Virus record (IMG/VR): IMGVR_UViG_3300022205_000001
Coordinates: 64,001 to 128,000 of that record
Reading direction: 5' to 3' (one strand)
Source of the DNA: a virus
Taxonomy: Duplodnaviria > Heunggongvirae > Uroviricota > Caudoviricetes
Length of the DNA stretch: 64,000 bases
Shown: positions 990 to 14,435 of the stretch, piece by piece
Layout of the letters: each line of letters begins with the position of its first letter
Numbering within the stretch: the first letter of the stretch is position 1
The notes under the pieces: generated by a model
Told to the model about the DNA's origin: nothing
The model's database searches: none
The model's input: the letters and a program-made list of their open reading frames with translations, nothing else
Made by a program: the position numbers and the translations under genes

Positions 990-1018
990 AGTATACACTA
1001 CTTCGCTGCAATTGTCAA
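990..1018 (-). promoter_or_regulatory. sigma70-type promoter upstream of gp45
   Basis: TTGACA (1018-1013), 17-bp spacer, TATACT (995-990); overlaps the 3' end of the kinase gene. Confidence 0.8.
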
Positions 1019-1624
1019 GTCATGCATCATGGTATGTACCATTGTCTTCAAATCGGTAAGTGTACCTCCATTGGTAATGATATAGTCCATCTCTTGACCA
1101 ATCCAGTCCCATTCAGACAAGTGAATGCCTGATTCTTTCATAGCTAATTCGGCACAGGGGTCACCTTGATTTGCATCTAATGCACATTGATACCAATCTG
1201 GTTCCGGTCCTCGTTTCACCCGAACAATGATACCTCCGTTCTTACGAACAAGTTCAACTTCATTCTTGAAGCGAACATCGGTAATCACAACATCTTTTCC
1301 TTGGGCCCGTTTGAGTAAGGAGACAACCCAAATATCTTTATGGAACACGTCTCTTCCCGCTTCTGTTCCCATCAATTGAAGCGCAAGACGAGGTGTAAAG
1401 GGATACCCAAATTTCTCTGACCAGAAAGGATCAGGGATTTCCCTCCATTCGCGGGATTCTTTTGTTGCCCCTTCTAACATCTGCCGGTCCCACCCAAAGA
1501 TTGCCGCGACAGCATCTTTGAGTGGGTTAGCAAATGCATCTCGCACGAATCTATAATTATCACGAAGTATGTCACCGACGGTACCTTTCCCACTGCCGAT
1601 GAACCCACATATTCCGATTAACAT
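998..1624 (-). CDS. gp1: deoxynucleoside monophosphate kinase
   Basis: MLIGICGFIGSGKGTV P-loop, FANPLKD, PRLALQLMGTEAGRD, VVITDVRFKNE, H-x-SE; start moved to 1624, where ATG overlaps the upstream stop (TAATG). Confidence 0.9.
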   Translation of the reverse strand: MLIGICGFIGSGKGTVGDILRDNYRFVRDAFANPLKDAVAAIFGWDRQMLEGATKESREWREIPDPFWSEKFGYPFTPRLALQLMGTEAGRDVFHKDIWVVSLLKRAQGKDVVITDVRFKNEVELVRKNGGIIVRVKRGPEPDWYQCALDANQGDPCAELAMKESGIHLSEWDWIGQEMDYIITNGGTLTDLKTMVHTMMHDLTIAAK

Positions 1625-2418
1625 TAGAGCCTCCCTGTCAACTCTGCAATCTTCGGCATGTTTCCTGTGAAAGCGTAGGTGCCAACATGTTGGGTTTGAA
1701 TCCACGGACACAACCACACTTTTCCACCAATCGCCCTCCACCACTGACAGAACATGTAGTCTTCTGAGAGGTATCGTTCACTCTGAGGATCGATCACGGT
1801 GTCGAAGTAGGCATGGATGTACCGAGTACCATCAAAGTTTTTCTGTCCAACATGATCAGGCTTGTATTTCTTCTGTGGATACGCGGCCGCCCACTTCTCA
1901 AACACTTCACGTTTGATCATCATGTATCCGGTACCGATTTCCATAACTTCCAATGGCTCAGAGACTTGGAAAGTTTGGGTGCCCTTCACGACATTGAACA
2001 CATAATCCCCGACCAAGTTTTCAAGTTCTTTAGGATCAAGATTCGGATGGTTGCGAGCCGCTGTTGCGATATTATGCCAATTGATAGCTTTCTTAGGATA
2101 AGGGGCCCCAATAACATCCTTATCCAAAGCAAGCATGGCAATGATGTCTTGTGGATTGTAGTGAATGTCGGAGTCTAGAAACAGGAGATGGGTGAAATCT
2201 GATCGAAGGAATTCATCAACGAGGTAGTTACGGGCTCTAGTAATGAGTGATTCGTTGAAGATAAAAGAGAAACGGGATTGAATACCATAGTGTTGAAAAG
2301 CCGTCTGAAGATCAAGACTGCTTTTCATATACATACCATGGCACTGCCCTCCATACATCGGAGTGGCAATGAACACTTTGTATTGTCGTAGCACATTCAA
2401 GTCAATTTGTATTTCCAT
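1624..2418 (-). CDS. GT-A fold glycosyltransferase-like protein
   Basis: VFIATPMYGG start, ESLITRARN, HLLFLDSDI (DxD), GTGYMMIKR, YLSEDYMFC and a late His (TQHVG): the GT-A/GT2-like motif order. Confidence 0.75.
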   Translation of the reverse strand: MEIQIDLNVLRQYKVFIATPMYGGQCHGMYMKSSLDLQTAFQHYGIQSRFSFIFNESLITRARNYLVDEFLRSDFTHLLFLDSDIHYNPQDIIAMLALDKDVIGAPYPKKAINWHNIATAARNHPNLDPKELENLVGDYVFNVVKGTQTFQVSEPLEVMEIGTGYMMIKREVFEKWAAAYPQKKYKPDHVGQKNFDGTRYIHAYFDTVIDPQSERYLSEDYMFCQWWRAIGGKVWLCPWIQTQHVGTYAFTGNMPKIAELTGRL

Positions 2419-2449
2419 AGAAACCCTCCATAAAATGTATTACCTACTC

Positions 2450-2944
2450 TTATGTATCTGATTTGATAGTTCGCATTCTTACGCGAGCCTCACATAACAT
2501 CGATCTACTTATCTCTGCCATAGCTTGCCAACGAGGGGATGTTGGGGCTTGCCAACATACAACTTCTTTGATCCCTGCTTGGATCACAGCTTTGCAACAT
2601 TCTGGGCATACAGCAGGAATCATGAGAGTGGGCCATACGTAGATGGTGCACCCCTGAAGAGGTTTATCAGCATTGAGGATAGCGTTTAGTTCTGCATGAA
2701 CGATAAATTTATATTTGGTTTCCCTGTCCTCATATCGTTCAGGAAGATCATCTACTCCTCTAGCAAACCCGTTATATCCCATACCGCGGACAATTCTGTG
2801 TTTGTCAACAATGACTGCACCGACTTTGGTGGAAGGGTCTTTCGATCCTGAGGCAACATACTCAGCGAGTCCCAAGAACCAGGAGTCCCAAAATCCTATT
2901 GGCCGATTGAAATTTTTTTGATCTGAATGGAATGCTTGAGACAT
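2450..2944 (-). CDS. dCMP deaminase (deoxycytidylate deaminase family)
   Basis: SKDPSTKVGAVIV, GYNG, HAELNAILNA and P-x2-C-x2-C zinc motifs; start moved to 2944, which has a GAGG RBS. Confidence 0.92.
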   Translation of the reverse strand: MSQAFHSDQKNFNRPIGFWDSWFLGLAEYVASGSKDPSTKVGAVIVDKHRIVRGMGYNGFARGVDDLPERYEDRETKYKFIVHAELNAILNADKPLQGCTIYVWPTLMIPAVCPECCKAVIQAGIKEVVCWQAPTSPRWQAMAEISRSMLCEARVRMRTIKSDT

Positions 2945-2960
2945 GTGTACCTCACAAACG

Positions 2961-2995
2961 AGAAAACGGAGGCCTCCCATTGCAAGAGGCCTCCG
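2961..2995 (-). terminator. intrinsic terminator
   Basis: 10-bp stem CGGAGGCCTC/GAGGCCTCCG (2967-2995) followed by TTTTCT on the minus strand. Confidence 0.75.
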
Positions 2996-3444: not shown

Positions 3445-3473
3445 ACTATAACACACTTAGCAATCAATGTCAA
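3445..3473 (-). promoter_or_regulatory. sigma70-type promoter with extended -10
   Basis: TTGACA (3473-3468), 17 bp, TGt-TATAGT (3450-3445). Confidence 0.8.
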
Positions 3474-4627
3474 GAACTTTTTTGTGACTCCATCCTATTA
3501 TCCAATACCACACTGCTATCAAGCTTGCTATACAAATCCAAGAATGACTTTTTGGTATCATTGTCGAATCGATTGAGACAATAGGTGATTGCCTTGATTT
3601 TACTCTCAAAAATCGGGAAGGCAGTAATGATCTGTACCAATCTACGAGTAGATACCACTTCGTCACCCACTCCATCCTCAAATGCTTTTCGGATGGTATT
3701 TGCCCAGGTGACAAGATTAGAGACGAAATCATCGTCAATCTTTCCGGCAGACTCCAATTCTTTCTTGAGAATCCTCTTCTCAATATTAGCAGGAGGCCAT
3801 TCTTGTTCAAACATGATCGGAAACCGTTCAAGGAATGCTTCGTTGAGAATGTTGGTATACATGTACCGACCACTCTCCGAACCTTTCCCCTTTGTGTTTG
3901 CCGTCACAATGACATTGAACCCATGTGCCGGATGTACCACTTCACCTTTCTTCTTAAGAAGAAAAGGTTTTCCTTCCAAAACTCGTTGAAGTGTTGCAAG
4001 GTTCTGGGCACCGAAGTCGATTTCATCAATGCAGAGAATCGCGCCACGCCGAGCCGCAATGGTGACTGGTCCATCACGCCAGACCATATCATTGTTAATT
4101 AGGACATACCCGCCCAACAGATCGGTCTCGTCGGTTTCGGGGGTCATACTGTAGTGGATGTATTCTCTCCTGAGTTGAGCACACGCTTGTTCAGGAGCCA
4201 TGGATTTTCCGTTACCAGACAATCCGGTGATGAACACTGGACAGAACATCTTTGATTCAATGATGGTCTTCAAATCCTCAAAGTTTCCGAAGGGAACATA
4301 ATTCTTGTAATGTTCAGGAATAATGGACTGTTCCTCAAGTGTCGTCACCAATGAACGAATGACTGATCGAGGAGTCAATTCTGCTGTAGTGTTTACAGGA
4401 GCCGTAGCCTTAGGGGCGACTTGTTTATGAGTCTCGGTAGTGATGGTGGCGCCTGGTACTTTGAACACACCACGGCTCATGCGGTTCGTTTCGTCCTTTG
4501 TGAACCATTGGGGAATTTTGATACCATGCTTATTGCAAAGGTTTCTCAATTCCGGTTTTGTAATGGTAGCCTTTCCTGTTTTCTGCAACAGTTTCAGGAA
4601 ATGTTCTCTGGCTGCCTTGTAATCCAT
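3470..4627 (-). CDS. MoxR/CbbQ-family AAA+ ATPase (often labelled CobS-like)
   Basis: GLSGNGKS Walker A, LCIDEID Walker B, ETDETDLLGG, TANTKGKG, NEAFLERF; start moved to MDYKA, which has an AAGGAGG RBS downstream of the promoter. Confidence 0.9.
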   Translation of the reverse strand: MDYKAAREHFLKLLQKTGKATITKPELRNLCNKHGIKIPQWFTKDETNRMSRGVFKVPGATITTETHKQVAPKATAPVNTTAELTPRSVIRSLVTTLEEQSIIPEHYKNYVPFGNFEDLKTIIESKMFCPVFITGLSGNGKSMAPEQACAQLRREYIHYSMTPETDETDLLGGYVLINNDMVWRDGPVTIAARRGAILCIDEIDFGAQNLATLQRVLEGKPFLLKKKGEVVHPAHGFNVIVTANTKGKGSESGRYMYTNILNEAFLERFPIMFEQEWPPANIEKRILKKELESAGKIDDDFVSNLVTWANTIRKAFEDGVGDEVVSTRRLVQIITAFPIFESKIKAITYCLNRFDNDTKKSFLDLYSKLDSSVVLDNRMESQKSS

Positions 4628-4655
4628 GTCAGATGCCTCCTTATTGTTATTCATA

Positions 4656-4684
4656 AGTATAACAGTATCCGGTATATTTGTCAA
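4656..4684 (-). promoter_or_regulatory. sigma70-type promoter with extended -10
   Basis: TTGACA (4684-4679), 17 bp, TGt-TATACT (4661-4656). Confidence 0.8.
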
Positions 4685-4705
4685 GTGTTAGTTTCCTCAA
4701 TATAA

Positions 4706-7111
4706 TCAATGAGTTTCGAGTTGTGAAATCATCTGAATGAAACGGCTTACGAGAATGCGACTCGTTGACTTCGTTTTCGATGCCTTTTTGTATGCATTCA
4801 ACAACCGACCTGGCGTCCATGCCCTTTCCTCTTCCATCGTAAATGCTTGCGCCTGAAGTTCCTTTTCTCCTGGAATGAAATAGAACCTATTGTACCCAGG
4901 GGTATACGATTCAATGAACTTGTTGCTTTTCAATTCTTCCTGTAAGGTCTTTTCTAATAAAATGGCGTCTTGGTTGTATCTAGAAAAAACTACACGTTTC
5001 CCATTCTTATCATGGTAGTATTTTTCAAGGGCACCCCCTAAAGAGTGGTGTCCTCGACCTCCAACAATAAAGAATCCAAACACACCACTTTTAGCCGTCA
5101 TCTGGAACCAACGCATAAGGGCTTCACGTAGATTATGGGAAACGTCACGATCATCAACTAGAATTGAGATTTTTTCTTTAGGATCAGTGATATACAATTT
5201 CCAGAATTTCAGACAGTCCCGGTGTCCTTTATCGTTATACATATATTCTATTCTGTTGGCATCCCCATCATGGACAAAGATGGTATTCACAATATCTAAC
5301 CGATGCTTCTCTCTGAATTGCTGCACGATCTCACGGGCCGCAATGATCGTTTCACATAACGGGGTGGAACCTGTGTGTGAAAGAGTCGGGAACTCCGTTG
5401 ATAAATGTTCTCGCGTTTCCATCATTTGAATCAGTAACAGATGGAGTGCGGCGGCTGATTTGAATTCCAAGGCAGACATTGAAGAGTTGAACATTTCTTG
5501 GAACCATATATCCTCAAGGACCAGGTCCTTTGCCTTTTTACTAAACTGTTTTTGTGTGTTGGTTTTTATAGGCAGATCCGTAAAGCTATACGCCGCAAAA
5601 GGGATGTTGACTTTCTTACAGAACATCGCAAGAATGAGAATTTGCTCCATTGCTCCCTTGAGGTGGGGATTCATTGATCCAGATCGATCTAGGATCAACA
5701 CCAACCCGTGGGACTTCCCTTTAGTGGACTTGACAACCTGACGAAAAATATTATCATCCAATCGATATCGAGCAATCTTCTTGATATCGATATCCCCGGT
5801 GTCGGATACTTTAGTGCGCCCGTATGTCTTTGCGGCCTTCCGCATTTCAAATTCTTTCACAAGCAGCATGATATAATCGTCATTCTTCTTATTGAAGTCC
5901 ACATATAACTTCAGGGCACGTTGCTTTTGATTGAGGTTCTTCAATAACGCTTGTGAAAGAATGGCGTTGGTTGTCTTTGCAGGAATAATAATTTCCTTAA
6001 GATTCGGGGTAGGGATCGTTGCATAAAACACATCCTTTTGCCCTGAAGAATCCACTAATCCTTCTTCCCTTGCGCGGAATTCTTCGTCAGTGAAAGAACG
6101 AGGGATAAACTCCTCATTCTCATGTGACCGAGGATCACTACCACACTGGTCACTATCCTCACCAGTTTCATCTTCCTCTTCTACATCATCATTGGAATCT
6201 TCTTCGCTTTCTTTTTGTTCCTTTGTAGAGTGAGAATCCTCTTCCCCCTCACCTTCTTCGTCGCCATCTTCCTCTTCGCCCTCTTCATCACTATCATTCT
6301 CCGTATCAGAAGTGGACGGTTCCCCGGCGTCTTCATCGTCGGATGAATCGGAACTATCGTCAGTATCTTCTGTTTTCTCGTTTTCTTCTGCTTTGGAGGT
6401 TTCCCCTTCCCCCTCAGTTGTTTCTTCCTCTCCTACATCATCAAACTCTTCGCCGCTTTCTTCTTGCTCCTCTTGTTGCTCTTGTTCCTCGTCTTCGGAC
6501 TGCATTGTTTCTAGCATGTCCTGCTTTTTCTGCGTCTGTTGTTCTGTTTTGGAGTATTCAAACAGCCGGGTAGCAAGATCAACTACTTGTTCCCATGTTT
6601 CAGTCTGCATCAGTTCATCATAGAACGGCTGTTCCTGTGGCGTAAATGTGATATCAAACGTCCCGGTGCCACATTTTGCAACAAGATTCAACTTATCGAT
6701 CAAATACATGTTTTTGATACGATTTTCCGTTATATGACCGAAAAACCGTCGTTTGACCAAATCTTGATAGCCCATGACCATGGGCTTACGAAGACCTGGG
6801 TATTTGCTCTTGATTAGACGTTCAATACGGGCATCTTCGACAACATTCAAAAATCCCTTGAATCGTTTCTTTTTCAGATCATGTGCATCAATCGCATCAT
6901 GCCATCCCTCAGGTGGGGTGTGTAGGGCATGACTGATTTCATGACCGAGAAGAAGGTCATAGAGATTTCCATCCATGTCCTTCCATGTAGGACAGGTGAG
7001 GATACGAGTTTGAAGATTGAAGTAAGCCGTGCGAGCATACCGATGTTCGACCGTGATATTTTCGGTCGCCATGAGTTTTGCGAGCATTGATTTTGTTTCG
7101 AGTGTAAACAT
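4706..7111 (-). CDS. metallopeptidase-like domain + acidic linker + vWA domain protein (MoxR partner, CobT-like)
   Basis: HEISH (HExxH) followed by NVVEDARIE; long D/E tract at about 6100-6500; MIDAS motifs DRSGSM, TP and HDG. Confidence 0.85.
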   Translation of the reverse strand: MFTLETKSMLAKLMATENITVEHRYARTAYFNLQTRILTCPTWKDMDGNLYDLLLGHEISHALHTPPEGWHDAIDAHDLKKKRFKGFLNVVEDARIERLIKSKYPGLRKPMVMGYQDLVKRRFFGHITENRIKNMYLIDKLNLVAKCGTGTFDITFTPQEQPFYDELMQTETWEQVVDLATRLFEYSKTEQQTQKKQDMLETMQSEDEEQEQQEEQEESGEEFDDVGEEETTEGEGETSKAEENEKTEDTDDSSDSSDDEDAGEPSTSDTENDSDEEGEEEDGDEEGEGEEDSHSTKEQKESEEDSNDDVEEEDETGEDSDQCGSDPRSHENEEFIPRSFTDEEFRAREEGLVDSSGQKDVFYATIPTPNLKEIIIPAKTTNAILSQALLKNLNQKQRALKLYVDFNKKNDDYIMLLVKEFEMRKAAKTYGRTKVSDTGDIDIKKIARYRLDDNIFRQVVKSTKGKSHGLVLILDRSGSMNPHLKGAMEQILILAMFCKKVNIPFAAYSFTDLPIKTNTQKQFSKKAKDLVLEDIWFQEMFNSSMSALEFKSAAALHLLLIQMMETREHLSTEFPTLSHTGSTPLCETIIAAREIVQQFREKHRLDIVNTIFVHDGDANRIEYMYNDKGHRDCLKFWKLYITDPKEKISILVDDRDVSHNLREALMRWFQMTAKSGVFGFFIVGGRGHHSLGGALEKYYHDKNGKRVVFSRYNQDAILLEKTLQEELKSNKFIESYTPGYNRFYFIPGEKELQAQAFTMEEERAWTPGRLLNAYKKASKTKSTSRILVSRFIQMISQLETH

Positions 7112-7364: not shown

Positions 7365-8948
7365 TTATTTGGGTTTTTGGAAGATATAGATCGGCTCAAA
7401 CTTGCGCCATGATCTCTCAACGCGGCAGGAATTCTTGAATTTTGGTTTTCCGGTCGTTTCATCGACCCGATTGCCGCCCGGAGTCTGGGCGAGCGTCATT
7501 TTGAGCGTTTCCACATGTTTCATACCGAGTTGTTCTAAGATATCACAAGAATCCTTTTCAAGAGGAAGATTCTCCCCTGAGAAAACAGCATCGGCAATGT
7601 TCCATGCAAGATATCCCCCCGGTCTAAGCCACAAAACCGCCGTTTGGAGGGTCTTTTTTAAAAATCCGTCTCTCCATGCATCATATTGAGAAAACCGCCT
7701 ATATGACTGGTTAGGATCATTAGAGTATGCTTCCTTAGCGAAATATGGTGGACTAGTGAAGACGAGACTCAGCTTACCCTGGTATTTTTGAAATTCTGGA
7801 TCAAACTGCATCTCTTCTGATCCTTTTTGCCAGAATTGGAAACCGATATGATCAATTGGGCATACAAGTGAGCCTGGTTTGACATGTTCGCGGAAGAAGT
7901 CTACGATTTCATGGTATTTCGTTCTTCCTGGGGTTGTATTGTGGTCTGTGTTTGGATCATTTCCCAGGTACACGAGGTGCCTGGTATCCATGGTCGATAA
8001 CGCACCCAATAATCTCCCACCCCAACCAGAAGATGGGTCCCACACATAAATGTTCTCTTCGTTCTTCCATTCCTTTGTGTATGTCTCGTAGATGTATTTG
8101 GCAACGAGTGGAGGGAAGTTCACGGCATATTGACAGAACGATACTCGAAACGCTTTCAATCCAACCGGGAAGAGTTTTTGTCCCTTTGTGAAGACACGAA
8201 TTTCATAGACCTCTGATCGGTCCCAATCTACATTGGTCTTACACTGTTCAGGGATAAGAGGGCCGAGTGTTTCGATCTGAGAGCGAGTGATTCTCAAATT
8301 TGATTTCGTGCGGAGTTCTTCATTGTAACCAGAATAACCAGTATCTTCGGACACCGGGCAGAGCCAATACTCCACTTTCTTGCGGGTTCGATACTTCTCC
8401 GATTCAAATTTCACAATCCAATCGTTTCCGGTAGCAGCATAGGGGATGTGATCAACGGAGTTATCGGATGCTCGTACCGGGGTCGAATAGCTGTAGAAAC
8501 TATCACGCTTGAAATGTCGTGAGGCATAGGTGATGAATGTGTCGAGTAATTCATCTTGTGCAAAGTAATCATAGATGGATTTCCCCGCATTCACATCCTT
8601 AGTATAGTTGATCCGCGTCTTCATCATGGTGGGGAAGAATTGATTGACGGCATTCCCCACTACAAAGGTGTTGTGAAGCACATCATAGACCCCGGTATCC
8701 ATGTCTCGCGCAAGAATTTTTCCAGGAATGACTCTCTGGAGGTCATTGAACTGCTCGGCAATTTCACTCTTTGAAAATCCGACACGAGGGGGCTGACCGT
8801 GTTCATCCCATAGGCGAGTGACTTCTTTGCGAAGATCGATCACCCACTGACGAAATTCCTCTTTTGACATCCAAAGGACTTCTTCAAATGTCTTGTTGAC
8901 CGGAGAGCCTAGAAATTCAGTGTTCTTCTCATAGAACCATTGTGTCAT
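7365..8948 (-). CDS. SAM-dependent amino-(N4-C/N6-A) DNA methyltransferase-fold protein with long N-terminal region
   Basis: Motif I-like WDPSSGWGGRLLG, motif IV FTSPPY, motif VI-like LRPGGYLAWNI, C-terminal FEPIYIFQK. Confidence 0.8.
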   Translation of the reverse strand: MTQWFYEKNTEFLGSPVNKTFEEVLWMSKEEFRQWVIDLRKEVTRLWDEHGQPPRVGFSKSEIAEQFNDLQRVIPGKILARDMDTGVYDVLHNTFVVGNAVNQFFPTMMKTRINYTKDVNAGKSIYDYFAQDELLDTFITYASRHFKRDSFYSYSTPVRASDNSVDHIPYAATGNDWIVKFESEKYRTRKKVEYWLCPVSEDTGYSGYNEELRTKSNLRITRSQIETLGPLIPEQCKTNVDWDRSEVYEIRVFTKGQKLFPVGLKAFRVSFCQYAVNFPPLVAKYIYETYTKEWKNEENIYVWDPSSGWGGRLLGALSTMDTRHLVYLGNDPNTDHNTTPGRTKYHEIVDFFREHVKPGSLVCPIDHIGFQFWQKGSEEMQFDPEFQKYQGKLSLVFTSPPYFAKEAYSNDPNQSYRRFSQYDAWRDGFLKKTLQTAVLWLRPGGYLAWNIADAVFSGENLPLEKDSCDILEQLGMKHVETLKMTLAQTPGGNRVDETTGKPKFKNSCRVERSWRKFEPIYIFQKPK

Positions 8949-8998
8949 GATTTTACCTCATAATCAAAATGATATTATCTCATATTTTAGGGATAAAG

Positions 8999-9571
8999 TC
9001 AAGCTGCCACACGTTCACAAATCCAACCTTTATGGTGGGGGAGTTTTCCTGAAGCTACCGCGGATAACTTTACTCTTAATAGATTGTTCTCTTTTGAAAA
9101 CTTAGAAAGATTTTTAATTATGAGTGTTTCTCCTACGGGAGATGTTAGTTTATATGTCATTGCCCTGTTAGTTTGTTTTTTGGCAGCCGCAGATAGTTTT
9201 TCTTTCCATTCTTCAGTGAAGGTTCTTCCCTTTAGGGAATCCGATATCTTCTTTCTTTCAGAATCTAACTGCATCCTTCTTCTATTGTTCATAATTACCT
9301 GTTCTGAGGCCGGAACTGAATATCCAGATTTTCCATAATTCCAAGGTTTTCTTCCTTTTGATTTATGTGACAGTAACAATCGTATCAATTCCGCTTTCGG
9401 GGCATAACCAGCTAATCCCTGCCATGCCACATAATCTTCTATTTTATTGTACGTTTCCCATAATATCTTATGGGCTCGCGCATGTTCCTCGACCGTTAAC
9501 GTCTGTATGTTAGAAGGATCATTATTTCCGCCCATATGTCTAGGAATAATGTGATGTTTGTGGATCACCAT
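8999..9571 (-). mobile_element. freestanding HNH homing endonuclease
   Basis: HKHHIIPRHMGG...NIQTLTVEEHARAH HNH core; NUMOD-like HxKISDSLKG-type repeats and a C-terminal YKLTSP...KGW tail; visibly more AT-rich than its neighbours. Confidence 0.85.
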
Positions 9572-9573
9572 GG

Positions 9574-10344
9574 TCAGTCTATATTTCCCGCTACATTCCA
9601 AAAAAGAACCTTTTCTGGTTTTGGATGAGTTTTATACCATTGGACCATTGGATGCCACCCTTTCGCATCATATGTTATTGCTGAATTGAATGGAGGTAAC
9701 TCTTCTTTTTTCACAGAACGATCAAACTTATAGGGAGAACGATGGAATATCGCGGTACCAATTTCCTGATGACTCATAGTATGCCCAACAGAAACTACAT
9801 GCACTCTCGCGTTTGGCCATGCTTTCTGTAATCCTCTAGATAGGGTGCCACTTGATCCTACTGACCACACATCATCAGGGGCAAAGGGAATTTGTTCATG
9901 ACACACTTTGACGATGCTATCTAATACAGTTGGATGCTCAAGTCCGATGGGTAGCACAAAACGATTTGTGGGGTCGGTTTCTGTATATTCTCGCGCTCTA
10001 GCCTTAGTGACATTTAACATTCCATTATCTATAAAATGGTAAATTGATCCGAGCTTCATGCCTTCTTTTTGAAACGGATGCAGCTTCGTCATGTCTCGTT
10101 TTGCCATAAACAAATGAACAGACTTTCCGTATCGCTTGGCAACGACCGGGAGACTGATTTGAGCGTAGCCTGTTGCGGGGCATGATCCGAAGACGATTTC
10201 TTTTTGAGGAATTGATTGGACCAGGAAGTCAACGAACCGCGCTTTGCTGCCGTATCCTAGCAGATCATCCCGAACGACCATGAATCCATCATGGTCTACA
10301 ATCTGAATAGGGGGATTGGGGTCTTTCCATTCATTAAAGTTCAT
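9574..10344 (-). CDS. PLP-dependent enzyme, fold type II (ACC deaminase/D-cysteine desulfhydrase/TrpB-like)
   Basis: VVRDDLLGYGSKAR (Schiff-base Lys), VGSSGTLSRG phosphate-binding loop, YDAK, C-terminal LFWNVA. Confidence 0.8.
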   Translation of the reverse strand: MNFNEWKDPNPPIQIVDHDGFMVVRDDLLGYGSKARFVDFLVQSIPQKEIVFGSCPATGYAQISLPVVAKRYGKSVHLFMAKRDMTKLHPFQKEGMKLGSIYHFIDNGMLNVTKARAREYTETDPTNRFVLPIGLEHPTVLDSIVKVCHEQIPFAPDDVWSVGSSGTLSRGLQKAWPNARVHVVSVGHTMSHQEIGTAIFHRSPYKFDRSVKKEELPPFNSAITYDAKGWHPMVQWYKTHPKPEKVLFWNVAGNID

Positions 10345-11471
10345 GATACAATCTTTTCGAGAAGTTTCGGGGTAACAATCACATCCACCACAAGATGGAT
10401 ACGCTCAATTGGAGCCCCATTGTAGACTTTATGAGGCATACGGGTATCAAGCATCCAACATTCCCCCACTTTCATATTCACATCTACACGCCGATCATTG
10501 GTGTTCCATGACGTGAAAATGACTTCAGGTGTCGTTGTAATAGGCCAGTGAAGACGAGCAATTTTCCCCAATCCATTTCCAGCATCAGGATCGACTTGAT
10601 CGGTATGTCGCTCAAGTTCCCCACCCCCAGGTGTCAGCTTCATGAAACGGATTCGGTGGATATCCCCATCGAGCCAGGCAATCAGTTCGTCCACTTCAGG
10701 GAAGAGTTTACGAAGTGGGGTGTCCTGCATAACGAAGACATCATCCTTATGTTCCTCTTTCCACTTGTCGCTCATTTCTATCGGCTTCGCAATGAAATGA
10801 GGATCGGCAGAATATCCTCGGAGTGAGAAAGCGGACCAGGACTTTTTGACATTGTATTTGGAGTAGTGATTCTCAAATGTATCCCCGAAGTCTTCCAATT
10901 TTTCACGAATGGAGTCAATGAGCTTCGTATCTACATCTGCTAACTTCTTAATGTTCACCAGGTCTTCGGATGGAACACCTAGTATCGCTCGTTTGTCGAA
11001 GTTGTATTTGTTGTCACGAAACCAAATAGAAAACACTTCCCCAAACGAGGTGATCTTGGAACACACATAACGAAATCCTGCTTCTTGGGCAAGTTGATGT
11101 TGTTCCATATCTGCTGCCCAGGTGTGTAGCCAAACATTCTCATTGTGGTAAGAATTGAGGAAGGTGAGTAAGGCAACATAGTCGCCGCAAAGATGCTTGA
11201 TGGTAAGATCCCCTGGTAACTTGATCGTCACCAGGGGTCCGTTGGAATACATGGATACCGGTGTGCGGACTTTGGACCGGGTTACTACCCCCATTGCTTC
11301 ACCATGGAGGTAGGATACCGTTTTCAACTGTTGTTTGTGTAGCGCCTCCGCAATGTTATTCTTTTTGAACTGGGCAAAGGGAGACGCTGCACGGTTATTG
11401 TACGGCTTATATTTCGCTTCAATCGATTTCAAGAAACTAATGTCGTATCCATGCTGCCATGATTTCATCAT
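10341..11471 (-). CDS. fusion of a GNAT-like N-terminal domain and an Asp/Asn beta-hydroxylase-type 2OG-Fe(II) oxygenase
   Basis: C-terminal half: LERHTD (HxD), ARLHWPITT, GECWMLDTRMPHKVYNG (distal His), RIHLVVDV. N-terminal half ends VWLHTW...AQEAGFRYV, resembling GNAT motif B; that call is less certain. Confidence 0.7.
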   Translation of the reverse strand: MMKSWQHGYDISFLKSIEAKYKPYNNRAASPFAQFKKNNIAEALHKQQLKTVSYLHGEAMGVVTRSKVRTPVSMYSNGPLVTIKLPGDLTIKHLCGDYVALLTFLNSYHNENVWLHTWAADMEQHQLAQEAGFRYVCSKITSFGEVFSIWFRDNKYNFDKRAILGVPSEDLVNIKKLADVDTKLIDSIREKLEDFGDTFENHYSKYNVKKSWSAFSLRGYSADPHFIAKPIEMSDKWKEEHKDDVFVMQDTPLRKLFPEVDELIAWLDGDIHRIRFMKLTPGGGELERHTDQVDPDAGNGLGKIARLHWPITTTPEVIFTSWNTNDRRVDVNMKVGECWMLDTRMPHKVYNGAPIERIHLVVDVIVTPKLLEKIVS

Positions 11472-11477
11472 ATACCT

Positions 11478-12116
11478 CTATGTTGTCGGCTGCTCCTCTT
11501 TCTGTTGGACAGTTTCCTGAACATTCATACAACTGATTACCCCGGCGCGGTATGAAGTCAATGTATTAGTGACACAGGCATATGCATGAAGAGTGCCCTG
11601 CTTATCAGCCGTCCACTGAAGAGTATTAGTTGCGGCGAATCCATATAAACCGCCGGTCTGAAATGCATCAATGTTTGCCCCCAAGAACACAAACTGCCAC
11701 TTGTATGTGGTTTCTTGAGTTTTCACTCGTGATTTCACATCTTCAAGAGTATATGTGCGGGAGGAGTTTTCAAATCCGTCAGTGACCACAACTACCACAA
11801 CCTTATCAGGACGTTGAGACTCAGATAACCCAGCAAGCCAACGACCTTCTCCGTCAATTGCCTGGCAGATGGCATCATGGAGTGCAGTGCCCCCTCGTGG
11901 GGTGTAATTGATCTTGTTCAACGGTTCAAATGTTAGTCTATCATGAAATCCACCAACAAACGTAGAGAACTTATACACTGCTGTCGTAAAGTCTCCTGGT
12001 TGGAGTTTTTGTTGACGGACCAATTCGTTGACGCCTTCAATCGTTTGATCCCAAATCGAGCCCATAGAACCTGATTCATCGAGAATCAAGATGAAATGTG
12101 TGTAGTCTTTCTTCAT
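11478..12116 (-). CDS. stand-alone vWA domain protein
   Basis: ILILDESGSM, GGTALHDAI and VVVVTDGFENSS MIDAS motifs. Confidence 0.88.
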   Translation of the reverse strand: MKKDYTHFILILDESGSMGSIWDQTIEGVNELVRQQKLQPGDFTTAVYKFSTFVGGFHDRLTFEPLNKINYTPRGGTALHDAICQAIDGEGRWLAGLSESQRPDKVVVVVVTDGFENSSRTYTLEDVKSRVKTQETTYKWQFVFLGANIDAFQTGGLYGFAATNTLQWTADKQGTLHAYACVTNTLTSYRAGVISCMNVQETVQQKEEQPTT

Positions 12117-12712
12117 GTGCGACCTCCCAATTTACGCTTGAATTCCATGATACGTTCAATCTTCTTAAACATCTTCTGGCGCTTCTTCTTTGCCATCTGA
12201 AGGGTGAGACTCCCCACTTTACTAGTGAACACTTTCCCTTCTAGATGATCATATTCATGCTGGAATACCCGCGCCGTGGCACCAGTGTAAACTTCTTCCT
12301 TTCTTTCTCCAGTGAGGGTATAATATTCGACCTTGATGGTTTTCGGTCTGGTGACAGGTAATACTAACCCAGGGTATGTCAAGCATCCCTCTTTGTCCCG
12401 TACCACTTCCTCTGAGGTTTCGAGGATCTTTGGATTGATTACCACAATACCTCCAACCATCACGAACATTCGACACAAGACCCCACATTGATTGGCGGCG
12501 AGTCCTGCGCCTCCATATTTGTTCATTGTTGCAATGAGACGTTCAGCCAATTCCTCTAAATCCTTCGGAGGAGCCGTGAAGTCCACGTCCTTTGTCGCTT
12601 TGTGCAAAAAGGGATTACTATCATTATACAACGGCAGCAATTCAGCCGTTTTCTTGATGATTTTCGGTGCGGCATCTGTGTTGTATGTGAAAACTGGCGG
12701 CGTGGTTTCCAT
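12113..12712 (-). CDS. def: peptide deformylase
   Basis: GLAANQCG, EGCLT and HEYDH, the three PDF signature motifs. Confidence 0.95.
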   Translation of the reverse strand: METTPPVFTYNTDAAPKIIKKTAELLPLYNDSNPFLHKATKDVDFTAPPKDLEELAERLIATMNKYGGAGLAANQCGVLCRMFVMVGGIVVINPKILETSEEVVRDKEGCLTYPGLVLPVTRPKTIKVEYYTLTGERKEEVYTGATARVFQHEYDHLEGKVFTSKVGSLTLQMAKKKRQKMFKKIERIMEFKRKLGGRT

Positions 12713-12722
12713 GATCACCTCA

Positions 12723-14435
12723 TTATATTACAATACGTGAAAAGTTTTGTTGTTTCGTAAACTTCACTACATGACCAAATTTATCCTGAAGAATATCCCC
12801 GCGGTGTGAGATTACAAATACATTCGTTCCATCCAAGTGGTGAAGGATTTTCATAAGTTCTTCCGCACCCGTGTTGTCGAGTGACGAGTCAAACACTTCA
12901 TCCAAAATGAGCAGATTCGTATTTGCTGAGTTCTTCAGTTTTGCAACGGCTCTCCATGTCAACATAAGTGCCATGTCAATTCGTTGCTTTTCTCCTTCAG
13001 AGAATGATGCATAGGAGAAATCATCACGATACCGTGACTTGATCGTTTCTTTGAACGCTTCATCTAGATTGAAGTTCACGAAGAAATCCATTGAAGCGAG
13101 GTATTTATTCACCATCATATTGATGATTGGCAGGTATTGTCGGATGATCTTTGTCTTGATCCCCGTATCTTTCAGAAGTGCGCCTGCGGCGTCATAATAT
13201 GCAATCTGCTCAATGATCTTACGTTTAGCTTCTTCAAGAGCGTCCAATTCTTTCTTATGTTCTTCAAGTCTTTCCTGCTCTCGCCCAGTAGAATCGTGCT
13301 TCGTTTCCAATGAAGCAATTTTCTCCTCTAGTTTCTGGATGAATTTTGCAATTTGCGCCATAGAGGTTGAAAACTCTGCCAGGCGAACGGAATGTGTGGC
13401 AATGGTCTGTTCAATCCCCCGAATCTCCGCAATCCTCTCCTGATACGACTTGAATTTTTCTTCCAATTGAGTTAGACCCCCTTCACACTCTCCAATTTTT
13501 GAAGACAAGGAAGTCAACTGATCTGTCTTGAACGCTTCATTGATTTCCTGAATACAGGTCGGACAGGTCGTTTCTGTCTCGTAGAACTTTTTGGTCTTCT
13601 TGTGCTTCCCAAGATTCTGTTCAATTTGGGCTTCCAATTGAGTCATTTTCTTGAGTGTCTTTTCAATCTTATCCTTGTCACTGATCTTTGCTTTAAGATC
13701 GCTGACTGTTCGTTTCATGATAGCGGTTTCAGCATTCAACCGAGAAATCTCTTCCTGGTGTGTGTTGATTTCTTGAGTATATTCCTTCTTCAGATTTTCA
13801 GCATCCTGTTGGGCTTCGTTCATGTATCGGGTTTGCATCGCAATTTTCTCTTGCGCCCCATTGATCAATACCGTGTTCTCACCCTTTTGCTGCTGAAGAA
13901 GAGAAATCTTCGTCTTGACCAACCCATTCATGAGTGAGAAAATCTGAATGTCGAGTAAGTCTTCGATGATTGCCCGTCTATCAGAAGATGATAGCTGCAT
14001 AAACGGGGTAAAGGATGCAGAACCAAGAATGACAATCTGTGTAAAGGATTTGAAGTTCAACTTTAGAATAAACTTCTCTAGATGTTCCTGATAGTCTTTC
14101 GATTCAGCATTCTGGTTCAACAATGTTCCATCACGATAGATCTCAAAGATATTGGGCTTGATGCCACGAATAATCTTGAATGAGTGATTCTCAGTGCGGA
14201 ATTCGACCTCAACCAAAGTTTCCTTCTGATTGATCGAATTGATCAATGAGGCTTTGTTGATGTTCCTGAATGGACGGTTGTACAAGGCAAAACATAATGC
14301 ATCCAACATGGTCGATTTCCCTGACCCGTTTTCTCCGACAACCAATGTATTCTGGTTACGGTCCAGGGAGATTTCTAACCAATAGTTACCTGTTGAAAGA
14401 AAATTCTTCCAACGGAGGGTTGTGAAGTGTAGCAT
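12723..14435 (-). CDS. gp46: recombination endonuclease ATPase subunit (Rad50/SbcC-like)
   Basis: GENGSGKS, CPTC zinc hook within coiled coil, FSEGEKQRID signature, LLILDEVFD. Confidence 0.97.
   Translation of the reverse strand: MLHFTTLRWKNFLSTGNYWLEISLDRNQNTLVVGENGSGKSTMLDALCFALYNRPFRNINKASLINSINQKETLVEVEFRTENHSFKIIRGIKPNIFEIYRDGTLLNQNAESKDYQEHLEKFILKLNFKSFTQIVILGSASFTPFMQLSSSDRRAIIEDLLDIQIFSLMNGLVKTKISLLQQQKGENTVLINGAQEKIAMQTRYMNEAQQDAENLKKEYTQEINTHQEEISRLNAETAIMKRTVSDLKAKISDKDKIEKTLKKMTQLEAQIEQNLGKHKKTKKFYETETTCPTCIQEINEAFKTDQLTSLSSKIGECEGGLTQLEEKFKSYQERIAEIRGIEQTIATHSVRLAEFSTSMAQIAKFIQKLEEKIASLETKHDSTGREQERLEEHKKELDALEEAKRKIIEQIAYYDAAGALLKDTGIKTKIIRQYLPIINMMVNKYLASMDFFVNFNLDEAFKETIKSRYRDDFSYASFSEGEKQRIDMALMLTWRAVAKLKNSANTNLLILDEVFDSSLDNTGAEELMKILHHLDGTNVFVISHRGDILQDKFGHVVKFTKQQNFSRIVI

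Follow-up and report, generated by a model that had tools for sequence, protein, structure and literature searches.

Three neighbouring enzyme genes in a T4-like phage raise the question of what a methyltransferase-type enzyme, a PLP enzyme and a two-domain hydroxylase might accomplish together. The source is an uncultured phage with a complete genome of 168 kb, and the stretch analysed here (the window) covers 64,000 nucleotides of it. An earlier sequence-only reading had described three enzyme genes running in one direction with overlapping or abutting ends, interrupted only by an HNH gene, and the ORFs and junctions are found just so. The features of the locus are as follows.

10341-11471, minus strand: hydroxylase (HYD), 376 aa, intact ORF; GNAT-fold N-domain and Asp/Asn-hydroxylase-type 2OG-Fe(II) oxygenase
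10989-11447, minus strand: GNAT-fold N-terminal domain of HYD (model residues ~8-160)
10350-10976, minus strand: cupin/DSBH oxygenase domain of HYD, with the H288-x-D290...H346 triad and R356
9574-10344, minus strand: compact fold-type-II PLP enzyme of the M6 gp52 family (phrog_7093), 256 aa, intact ORF
8999-9601, minus strand: HNH/NUMOD homing endonuclease gene between the PLP and MT genes (PF01844, phrog_655)
7365-8948, minus strand: PF01555-type amino-methyltransferase (MT), 527 aa, intact ORF
7368-8141, minus strand: catalytic SAM-binding domain of MT (residues ~270-526)

An ATGA overlap joins the end of the hydroxylase gene to the beginning of the PLP gene. Just 2 nt beyond the PLP stop codon (TGA, 9576-9574) lies an ATG at 9571, probably the start of the HNH gene, as opposed to the TTG at 9601 given in the ORF list. 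Upstream of the MT start are 50 nt of spacer that contain a GAGG ribosome site. The HNH homing endonuclease is a mobile intruder outside the pathway; its gene was matched in only 2 of 80 related loci, and in one relative (locus L004) a GIY-YIG gene occupies its position. As all long genes in the window lie on the minus strand, co-directionality alone carries little weight. The module sits in an early/middle replication-recombination block, with all seven T4-type late promoters located elsewhere. The slot that it occupies, between gp46 and a CobT-like gene, varies among these phages (peptide deformylase, vWA, HNH, GIY-YIG, dCMP deaminase, YAcAr and further genes are found there in relatives), so that synteny is also weak evidence when taken alone.

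The catalytic motifs that had been read from the sequence, HxD...H in HYD, DDLLGYGSK in the PLP enzyme and DPSSGWGG/TSPPY in MT, are all present and are invariant across 44, 36 and 28 homologues, respectively. In MT, motif I (304-311) precedes motif IV (398-402). The Pfam score of MT against PF01555 (26.1 bits) falls slightly below the 26.7 cut-off, and the family is matched by 28/28 MT homologues, whereas no Pfam family covers the ~270 residues at the N-terminus. Structural neighbours of MT in the Atlas are viral N4-cytosine-type and ParB-linked DNA methylases, together with TRM11-like RNA methylases at low TM, and the catalytic domain aligns with methylases of Bacteroides, Vibrio and Staphylococcus phages. 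The SPPY motif typifies enzymes whose target is an exocyclic amine, mostly N4 of cytosine and otherwise N6 of adenine. MT thus shares SAM motif I and the catalytic (S/D/N)PPY with the beta-class N4-cytosine/N6-adenine DNA methyltransferases, but differs from them in its motif order, its long N-terminal region, its borderline score and an obligatory tie to both amino-acid-tailoring enzymes wherever these occur.

The PLP enzyme matches phrog_7093 (E 8.7e-32), and K34 of the DDLLGYGSK motif is invariant along with a GSSGT stretch (163-167). Its model (pLDDT 94.9) most resembles an ACC-deaminase homologue (1j0a) and D-Cys desulfhydrase (TM ~0.75). Profile comparison in hhalign identifies M6 gp52 as a homologue (probability 97.4, E 1.1e-11 over 223 columns), and gp52 itself matches phrog_7093 at 2e-159 across its full length. 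Decarboxylation of C-alpha-glycinyl-thymine in DNA by M6 gp52 has been proven by experiment (PMC8989533).

HYD had been read as a fusion of a GNAT domain with a 2OG oxygenase, and the two halves fare differently. The oxygenase is matched by PF05118 above the cut-off (E 9.8e-10, 38.9 bits), a family present in all of the ~650 HYD homologues, and R356 is as invariant as the H288-x-D290...H346 triad in the alignment of 44. The N-terminal domain of the AlphaFold model (pLDDT 93.4) superposes in VIA-align on the acetyltransferase 2pc1 (Z 12.2 over 141 residues) and on the further GNAT acetyltransferases 2fia (Z 10.8), 3bln (Z 10.7) and Naa60 (Z 10.1), but no Pfam GNAT match was obtained in the 44 homologues and no Q/RxxGxG/A motif was seen by eye in their alignment, leaving the domain with no recognisable loop for acetyl-CoA; the 'GNAT' label thus refers to the modelled fold only. 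For the oxygenase domain the best structural match is L-proline cis-4-hydroxylase (4p7x, Z 15.8, 24% identity), followed by a nucleoside-antibiotic hydroxylase (7v4p, Z 15.5) and AspH (Z 15.2), such that the closest folds are hydroxylases of amino acids or of peptide Asp/Asn. A member of the same family, gp4 of Mycobacterium phage LilMcDreamy, aligns with HYD from where the GNAT-fold domain ends through to the C-terminus (probability 99.85, E 1.2e-30) and directly follows a gene for an ADDT amino-acid:DNA transferase (PF18724, 2.7e-12). Its cluster, gp1-gp4, comprises ParB, TET/JBP-like, ADDT and hydroxylase genes, with no MT or PLP gene nearby, and the adduct presumably arises from the transferase acting on oxidised thymine. 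Clusters of the ParB and TET/JBP-like type have been described (PMC13229309).

The case for a single functional unit of three enzymes rests on gene fusions and on strong conditional co-occurrence. A search for longer homologues, with domain order confirmed by Pfam, recovered MT-HYD-PLP triple fusions (1081-1191 aa) and MT-PLP double fusions (620-800 aa) in other genomes, orthologous to the window proteins and from unrelated genomic settings. One triple fusion (P0248) shares 30%, 37% and 45% identity with MT, HYD and the PLP enzyme, its MT part aligning with the MT catalytic domain at E 7e-28. In Microcystis phage Mae-JY30 the ParB, MT and PLP genes adjoin, and in gp1 of Erythrobacter phage R6L (vB_EliS_R6L) the PLP domain lies nested between MT motifs I and IV, behind a ParB domain. 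These two systems contain the same PLP family (33-38% identity; phrog_7093 at 1.7e-38 and 4.1e-55) and the same order of motif I before IV, and are annotated just as 'DNA modification methylase'. They differ from the present locus in their ParB N-domain and CPPY motif, where the present MT has a different ~270-aa N-terminal region and SPPY and the PLP enzyme has a gene of its own; no hydroxylase homologue was found in either phage.

The co-occurrence anticipated for T4-like phages is indeed observed. MT lies within 10 kb of the PLP gene in 30 of 35 well-flanked loci, and in the long records where it does not, it is present elsewhere on the same record (3/3). HYD is accompanied by MT in 41/41 loci. 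Background T4-like loci of the same gp46 neighbourhood carry MT in only 2 of 29 cases and none of the trio in 27, giving Fisher p values for the enrichment of MT of ~1e-10 for PLP and ~2e-17 for HYD. Among related phage contigs, PLP and HYD are essentially never seen without MT. The reverse does not hold, as MT is present and PLP missing in genomes with completeness ratings of 100% and 95%, and a 100% complete genome has PLP with MT but no HYD of this family. All four combinations (MT; MT+PLP; MT+HYD; all three) are found in complete or near-complete genomes and are intermixed across the MT tree, with no fewer than 16 changes of state, and sister MTs on branches of only 0.03-0.04 changes per column differ in their helpers. 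MT is thus the core, and PLP and HYD are add-ons, each dispensable independently. Functional coupling of the three enzymes is very likely, although the single pathway of the sequence-only reading stands as a non-obligate unit.

That reading had also noted the absence of a 5-hmdU kinase and an amino-acid:DNA transferase, and the absence extends from the window to the complete 168-kb genome, where no match to PF18724, Tet_JBP, ThyA, M6 gp51 or M6 gp54 was obtained and no amino-acid:DNA transferase, TET/JBP oxygenase, ThyA-type enzyme or M6-type 5-hmdU kinase was detectable. MT is the sole transferase always alongside the helpers. This gene content supports a chemistry that differs from the known thymidine pathways. 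The hypermodification systems of M6, ViI and PaMx11 (Lee et al. 2021, PMC8989533) share with this locus a logic of optional tailoring applied to a first adduct, and of pathway genes found fused in metagenomes, and M6 gp52 is a homologous PLP enzyme that decarboxylates amino-acid:base conjugates on the DNA polymer; the PaMx11 pathway also has an acetyltransferase (PMC8989533). They differ in that their 5-hmdU precursor route, kinase and transferase are undetectable here, where a SAM-dependent amino-methyltransferase-type enzyme stands in for them, and in that the published pathways are without an Asp/Pro-hydroxylase-type oxygenase.

We tentatively propose, with less than even confidence, that the locus encodes an MT-anchored DNA base-modification module with two optional tailoring enzymes acting on a SAM-derived, amino-acid-type side chain. 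MT would transfer the 3-amino-3-carboxypropyl arm of SAM, instead of the methyl group, to a DNA base with release of methylthioadenosine. The gp52-like enzyme would then remove the carboxyl group from this alpha-amino-acid side chain, still attached to the polymer, and leave an aminopropyl group. Hydroxylation of the side chain would fall to the proline/aspartate-hydroxylase-like oxygenase, and its GNAT-fold domain may acylate the free amine or merely hold the substrate. The parts of this proposal differ in strength: the target is probably DNA, a mark bigger than methyl is close to an even call, and the SAM arm specifically is a rather doubtful identification. Of the two routes suggested beforehand, methylation followed by oxidation and acylation fits poorly, because it leaves the PLP enzyme without a role and PLP+MT genomes without the hydroxylase exist. 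Aminocarboxypropyl transfer followed by a PLP step fits best, although, given that M6 gp52, a decarboxylase, is the closest homologue of characterised function, decarboxylation is likelier than the deamination then envisaged; the closest solved folds, which are deaminases and desulfhydrases and include no decarboxylases, count against this. Chemical precedent is given by TYW2, Tsr3 and TapT, SAM-dependent 3-amino-3-carboxypropyl transferases of RNA, of which TYW2 has a class-I methyltransferase fold, is related to the methylase Trm5 and passes the aminocarboxypropyl arm of SAM to RNA. The parallel with MT is one of proposed chemistry, and we know of no downstream PLP or oxygenase tailoring in these systems. 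In the 5-carboxymethylcytosine system of Synechococcus phage S-B43 (CmoA/CmoX/CmoY; PMC12783734) a methyltransferase-type enzyme likewise adds a non-methyl group that is then tailored, but CmoX is a C5-cytosine enzyme using carboxy-SAM from CmoA, whereas MT belongs with the exocyclic-amine (PF01555) enzymes and its module is without a CmoA-like gene or amide ligase.

The rival that survives best is plain methylation, which we regard as unlikely though a serious contender. MT would be an ordinary N4-cytosine/N6-adenine DNA methyltransferase, and the helpers would act on the amino-acid end of SAM/SAH or on another small molecule, for example relieving product inhibition or changing the SAM pool, with fusion to MT only through the common cofactor. 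The MT motifs are fully canonical and no sequence feature sets the enzyme apart from a plain m4C/m6A methylase; it stands without helpers in many relatives and in most bacterial matches; and helper gain and loss around an almost unchanged MT is what dispensable helpers predict. We know of no PF01555 enzyme that transfers a group other than methyl and of no DNA base that carries aminocarboxypropyl or aminopropyl, and neither was found in the literature. Nonetheless, plain methylation leaves no role for an amino-acid hydroxylase with a GNAT-fold domain, and we know of no methylase that is coupled to a PLP-based route for clearing SAH or SAM. The closest characterised PLP relative works on DNA-bound amino acids, a HYD relative adjoins an amino-acid:DNA transferase gene, and the nesting of PLP inside the R6L MT catalytic domain suggests a shared active-site region as opposed to bulk metabolism.

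A PLP domain nested or fused beside the SAM site would also fit a cofactor-first order, in which PLP decarboxylates free or MT-bound SAM, MT transfers aminopropyl from decarboxylated SAM to the base, and the hydroxylase acts on cofactor or product. Spermidine synthases transfer aminopropyl from decarboxylated SAM to amines, aminopropyl transferases have the class-I methyltransferase fold, and CmoA/CmoX are precedent for a phage making altered SAM for a methylase-type enzyme. This order is improbable, since closely related sister MTs occur with and without the PLP gene and MT would have to accept both cofactors; moreover, gp52-family enzymes are proven on polymer DNA, not on free cofactors. A target in RNA (tRNA, rRNA, mRNA ends) or in a phage or host protein is likewise improbable. 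Some sources auto-name the fusions 'tRNA A37 N6-methylase', a VP39-like cap 2'-O-methylase domain is present in distant fusions, a hint that some viruses may target RNA, and TRM11-like enzymes are among the MT neighbours, yet the nearest named MT relatives are DNA methylases, R6L and Mae-JY30 tie the PLP family to the DNA-binding domain ParB, kin of both helpers are found in DNA hypermodification clusters and the genes lie amid replication/recombination genes. Finally, three unrelated accessory genes in a hypervariable insertion slot downstream of gp46/gp47, as its many other occupants and the dispensability of either helper might suggest, are a very improbable account. It is largely refuted by the fusions in unrelated settings, and against it also stand the absence of helpers without MT when most background loci lack the whole trio, and one genome in which PLP has shifted 37 kb away and MT is still present.

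No description of the MT/HYD/PLP trio was found in the literature. Returning to the tailored side chain proposed above, the four gene combinations would yield four related marks, and a plausible driver of this variety would be selection for diversity imposed by host nucleases. Because relatives of the helpers occur in pathways that tailor DNA-attached amino acids and the trio is fused elsewhere, the module points to an undescribed chemical mark on phage DNA.

The window comes from a virus record that is complete at 168,076 bp and has direct terminal repeats. The source phage is T4-like; near the module it carries recombination nuclease genes of the gp46/gp47 type and genes for a peptide deformylase, a dCMP deaminase and a dNMP kinase. 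The module comprises a PF01555-type amino-methyltransferase (MT), a compact fold-type-II PLP protein (the PLP enzyme) and a protein that joins a GNAT-fold N-domain to an Asp/Asn-hydroxylase-type 2OG-Fe(II) oxygenase (HYD), the last two being referred to here as helpers.

Genes of the module and its surroundings, in the order of transcription on the minus strand (window coordinates)
12723-14435, minus: gp46-like
12113-12718, minus: peptide deformylase
11478-12116, minus: vWA protein (small, separate; phrog_7371)
10341-11471, minus: HYD, 376 aa
9574-10344, minus: PLP enzyme, 256 aa
8999-9601, minus: HNH endonuclease
7365-8948, minus: MT, 527 aa
7111-7311, minus: 66-aa ORF
4706-7111, minus: 801-aa CobT-like protein
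3470-4684: MoxR/CbbQ-type AAA_5 ATPase

The HYD stop and the PLP start overlap in ATGA. For the HNH gene the probable start is the ATG 2 nt past the PLP stop; ahead of MT there is a 50-nt spacer that contains a GAGG site. The HNH gene (8999-9601; HNH/NUMOD) is a homing endonuclease gene between the PLP and MT genes and is scarce among relatives. On a related contig (L004) a GIY-YIG endonuclease on the opposite strand takes its place at the same junction, which may be a recurrent homing site. The T4 late promoter TATAAATA occurs in seven copies in window 23135-63517, all on the minus strand and confined to the structural-gene block (1.6 expected by chance; seven reached in no shuffle), and a scan for sigma-70-like promoters and terminators gave nothing above chance. 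The 5.2-kb region returned zero matches in a nucleotide search against 50,697 phage records. The module is flanked by the AAA_5 ATPase, the 801-aa protein and the small vWA protein (window 3470-7111 and 11478-12116); the 801-aa protein combines a very acidic repeat region with a CobT-like vWA end (phrog_459 'peptidase'), and its gene comes after MT in many relatives. Further consecutive genes occupy window 998-2980 and encode a dNMP kinase (998-1744), an Anp1-like glycosyltransferase (1624-2418) and a dCMP deaminase (2450-2980); the same Anp1-like/kinase pair directly follows the PLP gene at one related locus (L036).

The motifs from which the sequence-only reading had recognised the operon are all present and invariant among homologues. 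MT shares with the PF01555 N6/N4 DNA amino-methyltransferases both the SAM-binding motif I (D/E-x-F/x-x-G-x-G), which reads DPSSGWGG at 304-311 with D304, P305, S306, G308, W309 and G311 invariant in 28 homologues, and the catalytic motif IV ((S/D/N)PP(Y/F)), which reads TSPPY at 398-402 and is invariant in the same set; motif I lies ∼90 residues ahead of motif IV. SPPY is the form usually seen in N4-cytosine methylases. The window MT scores 26.1 bits against PF01555, just below the gathering cut-off of 26.7, and the family is matched by all 28 homologues (E <= 0.05; best 2.4e-07). For the N-terminal ∼270 residues no Pfam family was found in a search of the 28 homologues, and the structural neighbours of the Atlas model include ParB-methylases, with an overlap too small to call. 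NCBIfam gave no meaningful family for MT, the PLP enzyme or HYD, single-sequence PDB searches returned nothing useful for the PLP enzyme or MT, and profile searches (A3, A1) against PDB sequences gave no relevant match. Two uncontrolled prediction runs for a complex of MT with the PLP enzyme both scored 0.00 and bear neither way.

A Pfam search with the PLP enzyme gives no match. Its relationship to gp52 of Pseudomonas phage M6 emerges from profiles: residues 18-252 match phrog_7093 (E 8.7e-32), which M6 gp52 itself matches across its whole length (2.2e-159), and hhalign aligns the window PLP family with gp52 over 223 columns (probability 97.4, E 1.1e-11). The two share a lysine and a C-terminal PFP...YD.KAW...FWN block, with K34 of the PLP enzyme aligned to the lysine of the gp52 SK motif. 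The Schiff-base lysine of gp52 is K36 (PMC8989533). The predicted model (pLDDT 94.9) adopts a fold-type-II PLP fold closest to the ACC-deaminase homologue 1j0a and D-cysteine desulfhydrase (TM ∼0.75 to 1j0a and 4d8w), and K34 and the glycine-rich phosphate loop G163-S-S-G-T167 are invariant in PLP homologues. The whole-length profile match, fold, lysine and phosphate loop thus place the PLP enzyme in the same family as M6 gp52, an experimentally characterized PLP-dependent decarboxylase that acts on C-alpha-glycinyl-thymine in polymer DNA; decarboxylation of an amino-acid:base conjugate in polymer DNA has been shown for gp52 and ViI gp226 only (PMC8989533). The family comprises 897 clusters at 50% identity (E <= 1e-10), with members on contigs of uncultured viruses, in three cultured phages and on some contigs from bacteria, and the cultured-phage members are annotated merely as 'DNA modification methylase'. 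Among the best 150 of the 897 clusters, ∼30 exceed 400 aa and are, because of this length, probably fused.

HYD matches PF05118 with 38.9 bits (cut-off 22.6), as do 44 of 44 homologues, and its model (pLDDT 93.4) has two domains. The C-terminal domain (DSBH) is closest to L-proline cis-4-hydroxylase 4p7x (Z 15.8, 24% identity), the enzyme also found weakly in a single-sequence PDB search (1.5e-4), and further matches include a nucleoside-antibiotic hydroxylase and human AspH (Z 15.2). The iron triad H288-x-D290...H346 is invariant among homologues, and the likewise invariant R356 is a candidate for the basic residue that would hold the 2-oxoglutarate C5 carboxylate. The N-domain has a GNAT fold: 2pc1 matches model residues 9-155 over 141 of 173 residues (Z 12.2), and further GNAT structures score Z 10-10.8. 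Judged by eye, the alignment lacks motif A for pyrophosphate binding (Q/R-x-x-G-x-G/A), which would follow strand 4: the segment after strand 112-117 reads WAADMEQHQLAQEAGF and is free of conserved glycines. No Pfam acetyltransferase is matched in the 44 homologues (E <= 0.05); PF00583 is found in 71% of the members of one related Atlas cluster. The proposed GNAT/2OG-oxygenase fusion is thus upheld for both domains at the level of fold, and the acyl transfer that the name implies finds neither an acetyl-CoA loop nor a Pfam match.

The sole cultured-phage relative of HYD is gp4 of Mycobacterium phage LilMcDreamy (probability 99.85, E 1.2e-30). Its gene is directly 3′ of gp3, which is annotated 'hypothetical' and scores 2.7e-12 against PF18724, the ADDT family of amino-acid:DNA transferases; upstream of gp3 lie the ParB gene gp1 and then gp2, annotated 'queuine tRNA-ribosyltransferase', for which the sole Pfam match is a weak one to Tet_JBP (E 0.0022; gp2-gp3 span 855-2665 of locus L006). 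Such a layout has been described for ParB-dependent T-dioxygenase clusters (PMC13229309), and gp1-gp4 together look like an unannotated thymidine hypermodification cluster. With gp52 and LilMcDreamy gp4, both helper families thus include relatives from pathways in which amino acids carried on DNA bases are tailored.

Relatives vary in what occupies the slot behind gp46, many other genes being found there, and synteny by itself is weak evidence for a shared function; strong evidence comes from conditional co-occurrence and from fusions. Of 35 IMG/VR loci in which the PLP gene is flanked by 6 kb or more on each side, 30 carry MT within 10 kb of PLP, and MT is present at all 41 HYD loci with enough flank. 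In a background of 29 T4-like loci fetched via gp46, 27 lack all three module genes, most with the same neighbours retained (Fisher p ∼1e-10 for PLP and 2e-17 for HYD), which rules out a trivial co-occurrence through MT as a core gene of these phages. The five PLP loci without a nearby MT do not stand as counter-examples, as MT is found elsewhere on all three of the records long enough to judge. In the reverse direction, PLP is near 17 of 53 MT loci and HYD near 16 of 42; MT occurs without a PLP gene in genomes rated 100% and 95% complete. HYD is ruled out as an obligate partner by one 100% complete genome that carries PLP and MT without this HYD and holds just an unrelated 209-aa cupin fragment. 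In the MT tree the four gene states intermingle and change at least 16 times, and gene state differs between sister MTs whose branches are very short (0.03-0.04 changes per column). The co-occurrence expected of the trio therefore holds in one direction, the helpers implying MT, and fails in the other, MT being often without PLP or HYD; MT is therefore the core, with PLP and HYD as independent, MT-dependent add-ons.

A search for longer PLP relatives yielded triple fusions of 1081-1191 aa with PF01555, PF05118 and PF00291 in the order MT-HYD-PLP, and MT-PLP fusions of 620-800 aa. The parts of one fusion (P0248) are 30% (MT), 37% (HYD) and 45% (PLP) identical to the window proteins. The settings of the fusions differ and include small islands with integrases, one case near type IV CRISPR genes and one near a Type ISP restriction enzyme. 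Together with the conditional co-occurrence (PLP implying MT, HYD implying MT), these fusions bear out the claim that the three enzymes are linked. Gp1 of Erythrobacter phage R6L is a ParB-methylase that has the PLP domain nested within it, between motifs I and IV, and in Microcystis phage Mae-JY30 the genes for ParB, MT and PLP are adjacent. The window lineage is T4-like, with a non-ParB MT and all module genes separate.

Several related arrangements were observed alongside. On two bacterial-type contigs (L089:7340-18043 and L088:188-13648), MT-PLP or MT-HYD-PLP fusions sit on small integrase islands, one beside a 1636-aa Type ISP restriction enzyme and one near type IV CRISPR genes (Csf3), and short conserved unknown genes overlap the fusion gene at both ends. 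A small YunG-like protein is encoded between HYD and PLP in relatives (L003:4934-5347, L004:4480-4899), and one 794-aa protein (P0257) fuses Asp_Arg_Hydrox, YunG and PLP; the YunG-like protein is a possible fourth component, not present in the window. In one phage group (L061:9057-12114; L075, L086, L062, L080) the gene that follows PLP overlaps it at the start and encodes a protein of 451 aa that matches glycosyltransferase group 1 below threshold (GT1; E 3.3e-05; 23.9 bits, cut-off 26.4); a uracil-DNA-glycosylase-family gene precedes PLP, MT lies ∼37 kb away on the same record, and the group may represent a further, sugar-adding branch of the pathway.

The complete 168-kb genome contains no match to PF18724 or M6 gp51 (amino-acid:DNA transferase, ADDT/aGPT-Pplase) and none to M6 gp54, PF00303 or PF12851 (5-hmdU kinase, ThyA-type, TET/JBP), although very distant forms could escape such searches. 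The lack of a 5-hmdU kinase and of an amino-acid:DNA transferase, noted earlier for the window, thus extends in detectable forms to the whole genome, and in contrast to the 5-hmdU-based thymidine hypermodification clusters this phage has no detectable amino-acid:DNA transferase, M6-type kinase or 5-hmdU source. Of the transferases, only MT is a constant companion of the helpers. PLP enzymes require a free alpha-amino acid, and the sole amino-acid moiety in a SAM-binding enzyme is the methionine-derived arm of SAM. We infer a route in which MT would transfer the 3-amino-3-carboxypropyl group of SAM to the exocyclic amine of a DNA base, the PLP enzyme would decarboxylate the adduct to aminopropyl, HYD would hydroxylate the chain, and the GNAT-fold domain would acylate the amine or merely bind the substrate. 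For the PLP step, decarboxylation is preferred to the deamination suggested earlier, as the characterized homologue M6 gp52 is a decarboxylase and elimination on such an adduct would remove it. This route would be the most economical, because the PLP enzyme needs an alpha-amino acid, the SAM arm is the sole candidate and MT the only constant transferase, and it would yield a sensible product for each of the four observed gene combinations. TYW2 is a precedent for transfer of the SAM arm. A further precedent is the CmoA/CmoX/CmoY system (PMC12783734), where a methylase-type enzyme of a phage transfers a carboxymethyl group. We tentatively propose that a PF01555 'methyltransferase' may have been recruited to place the SAM arm on a DNA base, with a gp52-like decarboxylase and a GNAT-fold/hydroxylase protein tailoring it combinatorially.

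Plain methylation by MT, with the helpers directed at a cofactor, is also possible: MT looks a perfectly ordinary amino-methyltransferase and is frequently alone. If MT methylates only, its obligatory pairing with the PLP enzyme and the hydroxylase would still want explaining. A route that begins with the cofactor, via decarboxylated SAM, seems improbable. It would be similarly surprising if the target were other than DNA, a reading hinted at by the VP39-like cap-methylase domain in some distant fusions. Four such proteins (P0278, P0279, P0275 and P0276; 1051-1353 aa) combine a VP39-like cap 2′-O-methylase (PF01358) with PF01555 and PLP domains, a related protein lies on a 715-kb 'uncultured virus' contig, and they are possibly an RNA-cap-directed version in large viruses. 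Mere co-location of the three genes is largely refuted, as the fusions speak against it.

Full-text literature searches gave no description of the trio, of a PLP-methylase pairing or of an aminocarboxypropyl DNA base. All amino-acid-derived DNA marks known to us arise from 5-hydroxymethyl-pyrimidines, whereas here amino-acid-tailoring families pair with a SAM-dependent amino-methyltransferase-type enzyme. The module is best grouped with phage DNA hypermodification that involves amino-acid tailoring, and its chemistry may, though less likely than not, be categorically new; its three proteins are small and soluble-looking. Hypermodification of phage DNA blunts attack by restriction enzymes and CRISPR nucleases and has been a source of new enzymology and tools. 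Transfer of the SAM side chain by MT would mean a new class of natural DNA base and would add a reaction to those of a very large enzyme family. In that case many 'DNA methylase' genes would be mis-annotated, and methylome calls by sequencing would be misread in such phages. The proposed route, if true, would give aminocarboxypropyl-, aminopropyl-, hydroxy- or possibly acyl-substituted cytosine or adenine according to the helper set, and would extend widely across uncultured phages, T4-like and other, and bacterial mobile islands.
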